Assembly: GCA_031367385.1 (NCBI GenBank)
Contig: JANLPS010000548.1
Span: 1 to 26,897, forward strand
DNA: 26,897 bases
From: Archangium sp.
Lineage (GTDB): Bacteria; Myxococcota; Myxococcia; Myxococcales; Myxococcaceae
Direction: 5' to 3'
Positions 1 to 9,000 of this stretch are shown piece after piece (within the stretch, counting starts at the first letter, position 1; each line of letters begins with the position of its first letter). The position numbers were made by a program.

Positions 1-3000
1 CTTCACCTCGAAGCGAAAGGCCGGCGTGTTGGTGAGGCTGGGCAAGACCAGGTCTTGCGAAATCTTGCCGACGCCGGTCTGAGGTGCGCTGCCAATCGGG
101 GCGCCGATCAACGCGGCGCAACGACCGGTCTGGGCCAGGCCCGCGCCGCTGACCACTTCGGCCTTGGCCATCGAGCCGGTCTGATTCGGCGTCCACCCGG
201 TGAGGGAGCAGCCGCCGGCCGCGTCTTCGAAGCCGCCGTTGACCAACAGCTCTTTGCGACCGCCGAGGTAGCCGGTGAAGTCGGCACCCGAGACCACATT
301 GCCCGCGGGGTCTTTGCCGCCACGAATCACGAAGCCGCCCGAGAGGTCGGTCGAGGCCGGTACGGTGATGGTCAAGGTGCCGCTGGTGTTGCCCTGGCTC
401 CAGGTGAACGACTGGGCCACGTTGGCGGCGGCGAAGCTGGTGAAGACCGGAGAGACCGCGGGGTCCATCGGCTCGCTGTAGGAGAGCTGGAGCGCGATGG
501 TCTTGGCGGTGAGCTCGTCGTTGATCGCGTCGACGGTGGTGTTCGAATAGACCGAGCCCGGCTGGGTCGCGGGCGCGATGTTGTCAGAGACCTGCACGCC
601 GGTGGCCGCCGAGGTCGAGCCGGCGTTGCCGTACGCGTCGACCGGCACCACCACGAAGGTGACCTTGTTGCCCTGTGAGAGCGGGTTGCCGTTGTTGAAC
701 GGCGCGTAGACCGACAGGGTCACCCGGCCCGCGCCGGGGGCCAGGGTGGTCTGGGCGACGCGCGCGAACGCCTGGTTGTTGCTCGTGTCTTTGGCGTACA
801 CCCAATAGGTGCTGATGCCGGTCAGGGTGTCGAAGCTGACTCGAAAATTGTTCGTGCTCCAGTCGAACCTCGAGCGGTCGACGTTGACGGGGTCGTTCTG
901 CACGGTCACGTTGGCGACCGGAGTGGCCGGGCCGGTGACGGTGGCCGAGCGAACCTGAAACGAGATCGCGGGGGTGCCGCCGGTGCCGCCGGTGGTGGTC
1001 TGCAAGTTGATCTGCAGCGTGTACTGATCGCCTTCACGCAAGGCCGAGGGCTTGATGGTGACTTCGGTGGGGCTCGTCCACGTCTGGTCGACGGCGACCT
1101 CGAGGCCCACGGTGTTGTCGGTGAGCACGAACTGGCGGCTCACCTGGCCGTTGTACCCGCTGGGGCGCGCCGGCACCGCGAAGGTCAGCTTGATGTCTTC
1201 GGTCGCGGCGATCTCACCGTCGAAGAGGTTGCTGGTGAGCACCCGCTGGCCGACCGTGCCGTAGGTGAGGAAAACGCGCGGCACATTGCCAGCGGCAAAG
1301 AGCACCGCCGAGGCAGAGGTGTATTGGTAATCGGCGAGCCCGTCGGCATTCTCATCGAACCACTGGGCGATCACGGTGTGGTTGATGCCGGTGGGCGCGG
1401 TGGCCAAGCCCTTGATCGAAAAGTTACCCGCCATGTCGGTGGTGGTGGTGACGACCGAGTCGAAGTTGCCGCTGTTGCGCTGGTCGACGTAGACGGTCGC
1501 TCCGACGGCGGGGGTGTTGTTGGGCAGGCGCAGCAGGCCCTTGATCTCGCCATCACCCTTGGCCATGCGCATGTCGCGGGTCGAGAAGCCCGCTGCGAGT
1601 GGAGAGTTGCCGGCGGTCGAGGGCACTGAGCCGTTCGTGATCGAGCGCAGGTAGCCTTCTTTTTCGAAGAGCAACGACGCGTTGCTCGAGACGGTGATGT
1701 CTTTGAGCTCGTAGAGGCCGTCGGCGCTGGTGGTGGCCTTGACGGTGCCGCCTCCGACGATCGCGGTGACCGACACGCCCTCGAGCGGAGCGTTGGTGGC
1801 GTATTCAGTGACGCGGCCGACGATCGAGCCCTTCGGGGTGATCGCCACCTGGGTTTGCTGCTGGTCGTACTTCGAAGACGAGCCACACGCGATCAGTGCG
1901 CTCACGAAGAGCGCGACGAACAGACGAGACATGATTGGGTTCCCCTTGGGTTCAGGCGATGGACGCGGCGAAAAGTGTGCGGACTGTAGCCGCGTCTTGC
2001 TGACTTGCAACGGTTCTGACCAACGCACGTGGTCGACGCGCGGCGGCCGAGTGCCTGTCGCAGGTGCTTCGGGTGCCCGCTTGGCTCAAGTGCTTTTCGA
2101 AGGTCGCCCGCGGTGATTGAGGTAGGGTTCGCGCCAAAATGAACCCGCGGTCGATCGTCGAAATGCCTACGCTGCAATATATCGCCGAGCCCACGACGCC
2201 TCGAGGAGCACTCTAAATCGTGTGGCGAGCCCTTCTTTTCGCGCTGACCGTTGGCTACGTGATGCCGGCTTTTTCGATTCTCAAGCGGCTGGCGAACCAG
2301 CGTGACGAGCTGACCCTGACCGCGCTCAAGCTCGACGGCCTCGGGGCGGCGAGCCCGACGCTCTCACGAGAGCTCTCGGCCGCGATGGGCACCAACTGGG
2401 TTTCAGGTGAGCTCTCATTGACCGCGACGGTGTCGATGCGGCTGCCAGGGCGCTGCCGGCTCGACCTGACCTCGACCGAGTCGACCAAGGCGATCTCGGT
2501 CATCTCGAACAATGGCAAGCGACGGGTCGAGGGCCCGGCGTTCGCTCCGGCGCAGGTCGCGTTGGAGCAGGCCTGCGCGCTGCTCGCCCTGCACTCAGGC
2601 ACCGAGGGAGAGACCCGCGGCGCGCTCGACCGGCACCTGTCGGCGCTCAAGGTCGATACGCATCAGGTGAGCCTCGAGCGGTTCGCCGGCACGGTGGCCT
2701 TCGTGTTGGGCAATCGCAAAGAGGGCTCGCCGCAGTTCTGGGTCTACAAAGAGCGGTTCTTGCCGGCGCGGGTGCGCTTCACCGACGACGCTGGAGCGGA
2801 GTGGGACGTGCGTTTCATCGACTACACCTCGCAGGCCACCGGAGACTGGTTTCCCCGCGTGATTGAGGTGTACGGCGGCGAAGAGCTGCAGTTTCGAATG
2901 TCGATACTCGCGAGCGACACCAGGCCGAACGTCGACGCGATGAAGTTTTAGGCAGGCCAAGCCGTCACCCTTTAAAGACACAGGCCGAGCAAGACGCTCT

Positions 3001-6000: not shown

Positions 6001-9000
6001 TTCGGTAGTGGTCAACCAACCCCGCATCGTGAAGGTCGGTCACCACGACCGTCGCCGCCCAGACGAAGTCGTCATGCCAGGCCTGCAACAGCCGCCGGCA
6101 CACCAGGTCGAATACCCGCCGCTCGTCAGCGCTGAGCGAACGGCCCGCCGCCGACACCGTGGTGGGTATGATCGCGTGGTGATCACTGACCTTTGCGTCA
6201 TCGACGAAGCGCTGGCTCAGAGCCCTCACGCCCGTCTGCGGCGCGAGGTTTGCCTCATACGGAGCCCGAATGACCGCGACCACCGCCGGCAGCGTGCCCC
6301 CCACCTCGAGTGAGAGGTGGCGGCTGTCGGTGCGCGGGTAACTGATGACTTTGTGCCGCTCGTAGAGGGCTTGCGCGACCTCGAGCGTGTGTTGGGCCGA
6401 AAACCCGAAGAGCCGGTTGCAGTGCCGTTGCAGCTCGGTGAGATCATAGAGCAGTGGCGCCGGCATCTTCTTGGTCTGCGAGCTCACCGACGCGACCCGC
6501 GCCTCACCGCGGAGCGCCCGAGCGACGATGTGTTGCGCCCGTTCACCACTTTCGGGCAACCGGGTTGGGTGCTCGGTGGCCTTTGCGTCGAACCAGGTGC
6601 CCTTGTACGCGCTCGTCGTATTCGCCGCGAAGGTCGCGACGACCTCGAGATACGCCTGGGGCACGAAGTCGCGAATCGCCAGCTCTCGCTCGACCAGCAT
6701 CGCCAGCGTCGGAGTCTGCACCCGCCCGACTGACAACGGCGCGGTCAGCGCGAGACCGTAGGCCCGCGACAAGTTCATGCCCACCAGCCAGTCGGCCCTG
6801 CTCCGCCCGGCGGCAGCGTTCGCGAGCGCGTCGAAATCAGCGGCGGGGCGCAGCGCCCGAAACCCCTCGCGAATCGCGTTCTCGGTGAGCGACGAGACCC
6901 ACAACCGTTGCACGGGTTTTCGGCAGCCGGCTGCCTCGGCGATGAGCCTGAAAATCAGCTCGCCTTCTCGGCCCGCGTCGGTCGCGCAAATGACCGAGGT
7001 GACCTGGGGGTCGTTGAGCACGCGGCGCACCACCTCGAACTGGCCTCGCGTCGCCTCGAACACCGTCAACGGCCACCGAGAAGGCAGCATCGGCAGGTCT
7101 TCGCGCCGCCAGCGCCGCCATTCGGGGCGAATGCCTTCGGGCTCGGCCAACCCGACCAGGTGGCCAATGGCCCAGGTGACGATGTAGCCGTTGCCCGTGA
7201 GCGTACCCTCGCCGCGGCGGGTGGCGCCGAGCACGGCCGCAAGGTCGCGGCCAACGGAGGGTTTTTCAGCGAGAACGGCGATCGTCATACGTCGCGCAGG
7301 TGTACCTCAGGGGTCTGACAGGTGCTCTTCAGACATCGACACCGAACGACACCGAACCCGGGCGCCGGCCACCGAGGGGCTGGCTGGTTCTCCCTTCGCC
7401 GCGCCGCGCGGGCCCATGGTCAGGCTCCCCCGGCTGGGCGGAGCACCCGCGCTTTGACATGTCGAATTTTATAATCATGATTATAATCATACATGCCATA
7501 TGCATGACTTATTTATGCAAGCAGATGAGCCGGCCCGCTTCGCTTGGGGTAAACACCTCTTCGCATGCGGTTGAACCGCCTCGACGACTACCAATCGTGG
7601 CTGCTCGAAGTCGCCGGGCGTCGCATCGCCATCGACCCGTGGCTCACGCACGAACTGTCATTGCCGCCTGGGCACTGGTTGTTCGGCCGACGTCGCGACC
7701 TGGTGCCCACCGCGAAAGAGGCGATCGCCGATGTCGACGCGCTTCTGCTGACGGGGCCCTTCTCAGACCACTGCGACCCCCAGACCCTCTCGGTATTGCC
7801 TCGTGACCTGCCGGCGTTCGCGAACGCTCCAGCGGCCCGGCGGCTCCGTGCGATGGGCTTCACTCGGGTGACGACGCTTCATGATGGAGAGACCGCGGTG
7901 CCGTTTGCCGGGGTGAAGATCGAGGCCGTGCGGCCTGGCTTCCCCTATCGGCACAACTCGCTCGGGTACCTCATCAGCGAGCCCAGCACGCGGCTGTACT
8001 TCGAGACCCACACGGTCGACGTCCAACGCCACGCGGCGCGAATCTCGGGTGTCGATGTGGCGGTCATGCCGGTGCAGGGCGTGTGGTTGTTCGGCATACC
8101 CTTCGTGATGTCTGCCGAGCGGGCCCTCGCAGTGACGCAGGCGATCGCCCCCAAGGTGGTGGTGCCGACGGGCAACGACCCGCACAAAGCGCACGGGCTG
8201 ATGTCGACCGCCATGTTGTCTACGCGCGGCACCATCGCCGACTTCGCCGCACTGCTCGCCCAGTCAGGGTCAACGACCAGATTTTCGAACCCAGGCCCTG
8301 GCGAATCGGTGACGGCGGCCTGAACGCGCGGTAAGCACGGCCGGCGATGCTGCTCACGTTTCCTCCTGACTTCACTTTTGGCGTGGCCACGTCGTCGTAC
8401 CAAGTCGAAGGCAACATCGAGAACGACTGGTCGGTGTGGGAGCGCGCCGGTCACCTCAAAGAGCCCGAGGCCCGCTGCGGCCCGGCCTGCGATCACTGGA
8501 ATCGATTCTTCGAAGACATCGACTTGATCGAGCAGACCGGCGCCACCGCCTACCGAATGTCGATTGAATGGGCGCGGGTCGAACCCGTGCGCGGCCAGTG
8601 GAATGAGGAGGCCTGGGAGGGCTACCGAAAACGCCTCGAGGCGCTGCGGGCCCGGGGCCTGCGCCCGATCGTCACCTTTCACCACTTCACCCACCCGCAG
8701 TGGTTTCACGATGAGACGCCGTGGCACGAGCCCTCATCGCTCGTCTCGTGGGAGCGTTACGCCAAACGCTGCGCCGAGCTGCTCGACGGCCTCGACGCGG
8801 CAGTGATCACCTTCAACGAGCCCAACGTGTTGCTGCTCGGAGGCTACCTGACCGCGATGACCCCGCCCGGCATCGCCAGCGGCAAGCTGGGGTTCGAGTT
8901 CTACGCGAACCTCGCCCGTGCCCACGTCATCGCGCGGCAGGCGGTGATCGATCGCGCGAAGGGCAAGCCGGTCACCGTCGGCATTTCGCAGAACATCATG

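Follow-up and report, generated by a model that had tools for sequence, protein, structure and literature searches.

A single reading frame of Archangium sp. joins a topoisomerase III to a RecQ-family helicase, and we propose, with a probability of roughly 0.55, that its product is a tethered rather than rigidly coupled enzyme, in which RecQ, acting on late replication or recombination intermediates, would supply Topo III with single-stranded DNA for strand passage. The frame lies on the reverse strand of the window (the whole 26,897-nucleotide stretch that was analysed) at 2972..7288, starts with ATG, has no internal stop and encodes 1438 amino acids, in agreement with the survey's finding of both enzymes in one frame. 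From the N-terminus the order is Topo III core, 164-residue low-complexity linker, RecQ motor, winged helix WH1, Zn site, winged helix WH2 and HRDC. The Pfam layout is as previously described (Toprim 5-133, Topoisom_bac 153-588, DEAD 784-942, Helicase_C 999-1088, RecQ_Zn_bind 1183-1229 and HRDC 1371-1435), and the SYPR (Y317), Walker A (K810) and DEAH motifs are all intact in the sequence. WH1, WH2 (uncalled by Pfam, with no Pfam RQC match in the fusion) and three 90-nt linker repeats are features beyond that earlier description. The features are as follows.

2972..7288, reverse strand: whole reading frame, Topo III-linker-RecQ fusion (P0001), 1438 aa
5471..7288, reverse strand: Topo III core, aa 1-606, with Toprim E8, the DxD 104-106 region, GRVQTPTL and catalytic Y317
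6338-6340, reverse strand: codon of catalytic Y317
5726..5788, reverse strand: stretch (aa 501-521) corresponding to the decatenation-loop region of E. coli Topo III, placed by alignment
4979..5470, reverse strand: linker rich in A, P, S, R and G, aa 607-770, conserved in neither length nor sequence
5062..5339, no strand assigned: three in-frame 90-nt (30-aa) direct repeats in the linker, sharing 76-83% identity with the reference copy
3959..4978, reverse strand: RecQ SF2 motor, aa 771-1110, with MPTGAGKS, DEAHCISQWGHDFRPDY, TATA, ATVAFGMG and QEIGRAGRD
3755..3946, reverse strand: winged helix WH1, aa ~1115-1178, inserted after the motor and before the Zn site, placed by an alignment gap and a predicted model
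3602..3742, reverse strand: RecQ Zn-binding element (PF16124), C1204, C1223, C1226 and C1229
3311..3571, reverse strand: C-terminal (RQC-position) winged helix WH2, aa ~1240-1326, placed by a predicted model
2984..3178, reverse strand: HRDC, aa 1371-1435 (PF00570, E 3.5e-17), preceded by a basic spacer

The N-terminal half exceeds the cut-offs of the TopB profile TIGR01056 (552.1 bits versus 515.75) and of NF005829 (653 versus 597) and falls below that of the TopA profile TIGR01051 (178.2 versus 456.4); its best-scoring model is PRK07726, and its top PDB match is E. coli Topo III (E 2.5e-88). Aligned to the E. coli enzyme, it has the type IA Toprim acidic residues and the active-site tyrosine. 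In a conservation alignment of 140 rows, mostly close homologues and including the window's own copy, E8 is present in 117/117, D104 in 121/121 and Y317 in 132/133 aligned rows, the single exception being a run of X residues at one locus (L021). As judged from sequence, the active-site residues are intact. Residues 501-521 align with a segment of E. coli Topo III that we take to be the decatenation loop. The aligned segment is acidic and one residue shorter than its E. coli counterpart; it has 21 residues in 122 of 124 rows and a net charge of -1 to -4 in 117 of 124, versus +2 for the E. coli stretch. No zinc-ribbon C-terminal domain, CPxC motif or Toprim_Crpt match was found in the fusion's Topo III half; among stand-alone TopB proteins, a CPxC motif lies past the core in 77 of the 88 nearest, and Pfam Toprim_Crpt is present in four of six scanned.

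The helicase had been described as a complete RecQ, and its DEAH motif, Zn site and HRDC are indeed present, but it is not canonical: the broad RecQ profile TIGR00614 is exceeded (358.5 bits versus a cut-off of 219.8), whereas the canonical equivalog TIGR01389 gives 442.6 bits, under its cut-off of 640.2. The best PDB match is an enterobacterial RecQ. SF2 motifs, including DEAH and the aromatic-rich loop, are present in the motor and near-invariant across rows (K810 in 140/140, DEAH in 139/139), and the four Zn cysteines are conserved in 138/138 and 137/137 rows. WH1, about 65 residues with a predicted helix-helix-helix-hairpin fold (pLDDT >90), falls in a gap relative to 4tmu, 1oyw and 4q47, is absent from E. 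coli-type RecQ and is present in 70 of 71 full fusions. The fusion RecQ halves also cluster apart from three outgroup RecQ proteins in the tree, and by these measures they form a distinct, non-canonical RecQ subfamily with an extra winged helix.

WH2 is predicted to have a long beta-hairpin wing with F-x-K-x-G-x-x-I. Structure comparison returned winged-helix matches at Z 8-10 and barely covered WH1; D. radiodurans RecQ (4q47, 408-509) matched WH2 at Z 8.2 and rmsd 3.0 over 79 aligned residues, tied with many unrelated winged helices. Foldseek gave no match to the C-terminal module at E<=0.001, and a complex prediction of WH2 with the Topo core, run without controls, scored 0.00. HRDC was detected in 53 of the 71 full fusions.

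The linker ranges from 21 to 269 residues over 141 rows, and column conservation at residues 641-760 is only 0.10-0.15. In a homologue with a short linker the predicted model (pLDDT 91, pTM 0.63) has a disordered linker (pLDDT <50) and, judged without PAE, fits two halves that lack a fixed mutual position; the linker is thus predicted to be floppy. From its sequence it appears to tolerate tandem expansion. No strong copy of the 90-nt repeat was found elsewhere in the assembly, and we rejected the linker as a mobile palindromic element, there being merely two weak matches elsewhere in the assembly (E 5e-4 and 2e-3).

Public contigs break at this repeat and none spans the gene, which might suggest that assembly or gene calling had joined topB and recQ artificially, and which leaves the repeat copy number without independent confirmation. 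However, all 21 long frames examined in relatives are fusions, several of them in single-contig genomes, a cultured Stigmatella has a record of the fusion, and in public contigs from four runs 29-30 of 30 bins are covered and no indel is listed. An artefact is extremely improbable and is effectively refuted at the level of the family, so that the architecture is natural, as the survey had held.

Both halves are under purifying selection, with dN/dS of 0.04-0.38 across all folded domains in four of four pairs. The halves are also co-inherited: the Topo and RecQ trees share 18 of 53 splits against 0.16 (maximum 2) in 1000 shuffles, and patristic distances correlate with a rho of 0.81 (56 proteins), although congruence is partial, with 14 of 24 strong Topo splits recurring. 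In the trees the fusion Topo halves group as a single clade of 74 rows (95 SH-like) and the fusion RecQ halves as a single clade of their own (99/99), which suggests one old fusion event. A single clade of stand-alone RecQ forms is rejected (AU p=0.0006), and the pattern suggests that the Topo half and the motor have each been lost from the fusion several times. All 10 of the genomes examined that lack a TopB match have stand-alone copies of the fusion-type RecQ; eight of the 10 are of unknown completeness, and two of those eight lack even a TopA match. One genome (G260) has a fusion plus a stand-alone copy, and in another (G181) the Topo half occurs by itself. Single database sequences account for some of the motor-less forms, which may be decaying copies.

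The survey's description of the fusion as widespread needs qualification. In its own family 80 of 103 genomes have a TopB match and 23 have none; in a sample of an acidobacterial phylum the fusion was found in only 5 of 201 genomes, and some lineages have lost one half or the other. The sequences thus indicate a fusion that is conserved in most myxobacterial relatives, yet patchy overall. A search with the junction region had been reported to give 2871 matches, a total that we did not reproduce: with residues 450-950 we obtained 7711 at E<=1e-20 from 8000 candidates, and the query region and cut-off probably account for the gap. The larger figure is not a count of fusions, because any long RecQ or TopB scores, but the companion claim that all 120 matches listed carry both parts stands, each having PF01131, PF00270 and PF00271. 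No exact database match was found for the proteins of three relatives, translated from start codons chosen here, and among the best 5000 plasmid records none covers 80% of the protein. We found no description of a Topo III-RecQ fusion in the literature searched, and the Stigmatella record is annotated under single-enzyme names. In two supplementary files of a proteomics study of DNA damage in Myxococcus xanthus, neither 'topoisomerase' nor 'topB' returned the protein; the table may list only changed proteins.

A RecQ-TopB 'toposome' was proposed for E. coli (Harmon et al. 1999, 2003; Suski and Marians 2008, as related in excerpts of PMC13760219, PMC13244152 and PMC7140829), and in vitro RecQ and Topo III catenate duplex circles in a reaction requiring the RecQ ATPase (PMC13760219, in excerpt). 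In the excerpted portions of PMC13244152 and PMC7140829, however, genetic evidence favours RecG over RecQ as the partner of Topo III, no physical contact was seen, and cooperation in vivo is reported absent. The fusion has the same two enzyme families and all catalytic motifs, but, unlike the two non-contacting E. coli proteins, it is one chain in which the pairing is genetically fixed. Its RecQ belongs to a separate subfamily below the canonical cut-off, with an extra winged helix, and its Topo III differs from that of E. coli in scoring best with PRK07726, in its acidic loop and in having no tail of its own.

The two halves had also been equated with those of the dissolvasome. The covalent link between Topo III and RecQ stands, but for the fusion 'dissolvasome' is an analogy. 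Yeast Top3 and Rmi1 bind to the disordered N-terminal region of Sgs1 that precedes its motor (PMC3905885, in excerpt). In Sgs1-Top3-Rmi1 and BLM-TOP3A-RMI1-RMI2, as in the fusion, a long disordered arm carries Topo III and leads into a RecQ motor, which is followed by a Zn site, a winged helix and HRDC, the disorder and the winged helix being predicted in the fusion; there Topo III is docked, whereas here it is covalently linked ahead of the motor through residues 607-770. RMI1 (PF08585) was not found in the 98%-complete genome, with a profile that also detected 0 of 14 prokaryotic controls. The bacterial Topo III's own loop has been described as the functional equivalent of RMI1 (excerpt of PMC13244152). 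Engineered yeast Top3-Sgs1 fusion proteins are the subject, by its title, of Bennett and Wang 2001 (PMC58691). These too place a Topo III and a RecQ helicase in a single chain, whereas the myxobacterial fusion is natural, bacterial and under long-term selection. In the yeast fusions Top3 is reportedly placed first, and they are said to work in cells.

In the tethered enzyme that we favour, the helicase half would open duplex at forks, D-loops or late-replication junctions, producing single-stranded DNA through which the topoisomerase attached to it would pass strands. The linker would act as a leash that raises local concentration and not as the allosteric coupling of a reverse gyrase, a role paralleling SSB bridging in E. 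coli in vitro and Rmi1 with the disordered Sgs1 N-terminus in yeast. The RecQ module presumably replaced the zinc-ribbon C-terminal domain of the ancestral TopB, and WH2 likely also guides the topoisomerase to junctions in DNA or to SSB. Against this reading we count the E. coli genetics and lack of physical contact, the separability of the halves, the partial congruence of the trees, an acidic loop region unlike that of E. coli, the 23 of 103 family genomes that lack a TopB match and the absence of the protein from the proteomics entries. A stronger form, a one-chain bacterial dissolvasome whose motor would carry Topo III processively through converging forks and double junctions while WH2 did the targeting that falls to RMI1 and the TOP3A zinc fingers in eukaryotes, is offered only tentatively.

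We are doubtful of a reading in which the protein works chiefly as a Topo III decatenase at forks, the RecQ module being first of all a targeting arm that replaced the zinc-ribbon tail and binds DNA or SSB through WH2 and HRDC, and the motor doing RecQ work of its own on these structures without feeding the topoisomerase. In its favour, WH2 is all that is kept of the RecQ half in six of 132 motor-less TopB sequences, in about four to five separate places inside the fusion clade (exact sisters have low support), one form retains only HRDC and one (P0128) has a degenerate motor and an intact WH2. In excerpted sources the winged helix of E. coli RecQ binds the SSB tail (PMC6144805), and E. coli Topo III works at forks by way of SSB and DnaX (PMC7140829). 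Yet no part of the chain is better conserved than the motor (dN/dS 0.04-0.23, motifs in nearly all of the 71 full fusions), WH2 is divergent and its SSB binding putative, and the decay suspected of some motor-less forms weakens the case further. It is unlikely that neighbouring co-regulated genes simply fused, leaving independent halves and a harmless join. The extreme variability of the linker and the repeated loss of either half agree with such a history, and a Listeria record with recQ and topB as separate neighbours 23 bp apart shows a route to it; against it, the join persists among proteins down to 38-41% identity in the Topo half, and no clean split into two adjacent genes was seen among the eight short frames of the 89 best rows (six contig ends, one frame break and one Topo-only gene). 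Four split-looking loci have both halves in register with frame breaks between them, likely assembly errors. Quite improbable is a reverse-gyrase-type, ATP-driven topoisomerase whose motor controls the Topo III gate for directional strand passage or supercoiling. An SF2 helicase-like module and a type IA topoisomerase do share one polypeptide in both proteins, some fusion linkers are just 21-35 residues long, and WH1 is almost always retained; yet the domain order is reversed, as the survey noted, the helicase-like domain of reverse gyrase being N-terminal (PMC2647321, in excerpt) and that of the fusion C-terminal. The fusion also scores 98.5 bits with TIGR01054 against a cut-off of 471.7, which rejects membership, its linkers reach 269 residues without any conserved residue, its halves survive apart, and its motor is RecQ-type and its topoisomerase TopB-type.

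Joint action of RecQ and Topo III in bacterial cells has been debated since 1999, and the fusion matters because the E. coli partnership in vivo is explicitly disputed. Both parts and their in vitro synergy are already known, and databases show the architecture, though under single-enzyme names; a fusion maintained by purifying selection on both active sites is natural evidence that some bacteria pair the two. The one-chain enzyme, if real, makes the partnership directly testable in culturable myxobacteria, with natural deletion forms (RecQ alone, Topo alone, Topo plus winged helix, dead motor) as ready-made controls. Were the dissolvasome reading true, RecQ-Topo III dissolution would exist in bacteria, having arisen once by an old gene fusion, and would offer a minimal single-polypeptide model of the Bloom complex.

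The fusion is the sole TopB-like match in the assembly, as had been claimed; the other type IA match (on C183, 24%) reads as TopA, and the separate RecQ previously noted lies on another contig (C536, 44%). Of the genome's two type IIA A subunits, one has a GyrA-box-like motif and the other lacks it. In the cell the tethered enzyme likely has an accessory part in the genome maintenance of large chromosomes, because the genome also encodes gyrase, a ParC-like subunit, RuvC, a RecG-like protein and a further RecQ. Replacement of Topo IV was rejected given the two A subunits, as was replacement of RuvC or RecG: RuvC is over its cut-off, and RecG-like matches are present though under theirs, one of them at a contig end. 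A promoter scan found one site versus 0.6 expected. There is no conserved operon, no neighbour being common to the fusion loci save one ORF in two of them (L001 and L007); large ORF clusters around these loci are opposite-strand or other-frame readings of the fusion gene. Recent import into the genome was likewise rejected, GC3 being 0.84-0.86 in the fusion gene and 0.83-0.90 in its neighbours.

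A single 1438-aa reading frame occupies window 2972-7288 on the minus strand, as the survey's finding had claimed, and Pfam recovers every domain that it had assigned (Toprim, Topoisom_bac, DEAD, Helicase_C, RecQ_Zn_bind and HRDC) in the positions reported. The N-terminal half scores above the NCBIfam cut-offs for TopB (bacterial topoisomerase III), and the C-terminal half scores above the broad RecQ family cut-off and below that of the canonical RecQ equivalog. The chain is organized as follows:

Residues 1-606: Topo III half, aligned to E. coli Topo III
Residues 607-770: low-complexity linker with three 30-aa repeats
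Residues 771-1110: RecQ motor
Residues 1095-1330: modelled region (pLDDT 92.7) containing, in order, a winged helix (WH1), the Zn element and, at the RQC position, another winged helix (WH2)
C-terminal end: HRDC, the last domain

In the alignment of residues 1-606, an acidic segment whose acidity is family-wide lies at what we take to be the position of the E. coli decatenation loop. Comparison with solved RecQ structures reveals about 65 extra residues ahead of the Zn site, which fold as WH1 in the model; the structural matches to WH2 are generic winged helices. The predicted structure of a short-linker homologue (locus L105, residues 1-1196; pLDDT 91.3, pTM 0.63) has a linker pLDDT below 50 and matches Topo III structures and RecQ structures separately. 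This homologue model suggests two well-folded halves whose mutual position is probably not fixed.

A search of the 7.97-Mb, 98%-complete assembly bears out that this is the only TopB-like gene and that a separate RecQ exists on another contig (C536:19558-21603); a TopA-like gene lies on a further contig. The separate RecQ lacks a match to the WH profiles of the fusion. Judged by eye, a long stretch is inserted between its motor and its Zn site, and such inserts may be common among non-canonical RecQ proteins.

The fusion can hardly be an assembly or gene-calling artefact. The survey had regarded it as natural, and all 120 listed homologues do contain Pfam domains of both halves. Public contigs from four runs in two studies (one run possibly being the source itself) align with zero indels, but break at the linker repeat. 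TopB matches (E≤1e-45) are present in 111 of 251 genomes of the same phylum and 80 of 103 of the same family, tallies that count the unpublished genome G180 as one row. Of the 89 top-ranking rows (identity of at least 57%), 81 lie in frames of 1100 aa or more, and the 21 of these examined are all fusions; the eight short frames comprise six contig ends, one frame break and one true Topo-only gene. The fusion is also found at named loci of Polyangiaceae and Oligoflexus, and in five of 201 acidobacterial genomes, 19 of which have TopB. The protein of one genome in the same family exactly matches a Stigmatella aurantiaca fusion record (WP_013378047.1), which suggests that the window comes from a Myxococcaceae-type myxobacterium. 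That record is filed as 'DNA topoisomerase 3' at NCBI and as 'RecQ' in UniRef, single-enzyme names that illustrate how the fusion stays hidden. In four fusion genes (L015, L023, L042 and L106) frame changes interrupt the coding sequence and the two halves stay in register; these are likely assembly errors, which would lead to annotation of topB and recQ as two genes. Family f14 (loci L100, L102 and L133) has a TopB match in 17 of 17 genomes, typically a protein of about 950-1000 aa with a cysteine-pair tail and a Lys/Ala-rich end, and some of its genomes (G088, G098 and G058) hold the fusion in addition.

For the Topo half, the best 150 clusters (50% identity) include 40 with a RecQ motor. A 172-row FastTree, 12 short or cut rows having been dropped, places every fusion within one 74-row clade (support 95); of the three seemingly stand-alone rows in it, two are Topo+WH2 forms and the third is a fusion with a frame shift. 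A 105-row subsample requires two label changes, one forced by strong branches, which favors, without proving, a single origin. The RecQ halves also form one clade (99/99; 27 of 32 rows). The nearest true stand-alone TopB proteins have CPxC in 77 of 88 cases and mostly end in cysteine-pair zinc ribbons (Toprim_Crpt in four of six scanned), suggesting that the RecQ module took the place of such a tail.

Stand-alone RecQ proteins of the fusion's subfamily are nested inside the RecQ-half clade at four or more positions, and an AU test on seven of the stand-alone rows rejects a single clade for them (p=0.00056). By these trees the Acidobacteriaceae-type stand-alone subfamily probably derives from the fusion. 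No Topo remnant was found near 16 stand-alone RecQ loci, and no TopB match in ten genomes with a stand-alone copy and without the fusion, mostly draft and possibly incomplete assemblies. WH2 occurs in six of 132 TopB sequences without a RecQ motor, and neither WH profile matches any of 54 other RecQ sequences. Two of the deletion forms are:

Stand-alone RecQ: L017, L018, L022, L025, L027, L029-L032, L034, L035, L037, L038, L112, L113
Topo+WH2: L011:1204-3702; proteins P0141, P0145, P0148, P0163, P0250

Stand-alone RecQ with two winged helices is common in Acidobacteriaceae loci. The Topo+WH2 forms belong to the fusion clade, are placed at several points of the tree, and have lost the motor, WH1, Zn site and HRDC while keeping WH2. 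Protein P0133 keeps HRDC as its sole RecQ part, and genome G181 has the Topo half by itself. P0128, a single 1205-aa sequence on a 40-kb contig, is a fusion whose Topo III is intact and whose helicase has degenerated: Walker A, the aromatic loop, motifs V-VI and WH1 are lost, and the Zn site and WH2 are retained. Together with the trees, the RecQ-only, Topo-only, WH2-only, HRDC-only and dead-motor forms suggest a fusion that is likely old, of single origin and repeatedly pruned from either end.

Where both halves persist, they are constrained. An alignment of 140 rows, mostly close homologues and including the window's own copy, shows almost no variation at the Toprim acids, the catalytic Y317, Walker A (K810), DEAH, the aromatic loop, motif VI or the four Zn cysteines; across these rows the linker ranges from 21 to 269 aa. 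Every folded domain has a dN/dS of 0.04-0.38 in four of four pairs; linker estimates are unreliable. For 56 fusions, the Topo-half and RecQ-half trees have 18 of 53 splits in common vs 0.16 by shuffling, with a rho of 0.81, and co-inheritance of the halves is thus clear but partial.

Topo III requires single-stranded DNA. The RecQ helicase unwinds in the 3'-5' direction, opening forks and D-loops. Two papers describe catenation of duplex circles by E. coli RecQ and Topo III in vitro, requiring the RecQ ATPase (PMC13760219), and docking of yeast Top3/Rmi1 on the disordered N-terminus preceding the Sgs1 motor (PMC3905885), placing Topo III ahead of the motor as in the fusion. Together these favor, at a probability of roughly 55%, a tethered unwind-and-unlink enzyme acting on late replication or recombination substrates. 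The motor would generate a single-stranded gap in which Topo III, on its linker leash, could perform strand passage and so separate the linked strands of late replication intermediates, hemicatenanes or recombination joints. Because the genome also encodes gyrase, a ParC-like subunit, RuvC and RecG-like genes, the cellular role is likely accessory. Counting against the tether are the E. coli genetics in PMC13244152 and PMC7140829, which lend no support to RecQ-Topo III cooperation and indicate RecG instead.

The RecQ module might alternatively be a targeting arm for Topo III acting through WH2, a tentative reading that gains weight because WH2 has repeatedly been kept where the motor was lost; the winged helix of E. 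coli RecQ binds SSB (PMC6144805). That two independently working halves are passively fused is more doubtful, and the separability of the halves keeps it in play; coupling of motor and topoisomerase as in reverse gyrase is distinctly unlikely. Reverse gyrase and Topo V are given as fusions in the passages covered of a topoisomerase phylogenomics review (PMC2647321), which do not name Topo III-RecQ, and searches of literature outside subscription journals found no description of a Topo III-RecQ fusion. The fusion is real, an apparently unstudied variant on the known RecQ-Topo III partnership, and it offers a good way into a dispute over that partnership that has lasted 25 years.

A Myxococcus damage-response paper lists one RecQ, MXAN_1950 (PMC12288472), a locus for which no link to the fusion emerged, and two of its supplements contain no 'topoisomerase' or 'topB' entries. 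In a Listeria monocytogenes locus (L135, from NZ_LR134400.1, a record labelled a plasmid yet carrying guaB), recQ (2477-4249 of the locus) and topB (4273-6426) share a strand, with recQ directly upstream and 23 bp between the two; these same families are paired there as separate genes, in the order opposite to the fusion. Elsewhere in the window, a DPP IV-family peptidase and two POT-family peptide transporters in close proximity (14284-20544) are likely a peptide-uptake cluster unrelated to the fusion. Between the fusion gene and a divergent metallo-beta-lactamase-fold gene lies an AT-rich patch (7440-7530) containing a perfect 14-bp palindrome (7477-7490), possibly an operator.
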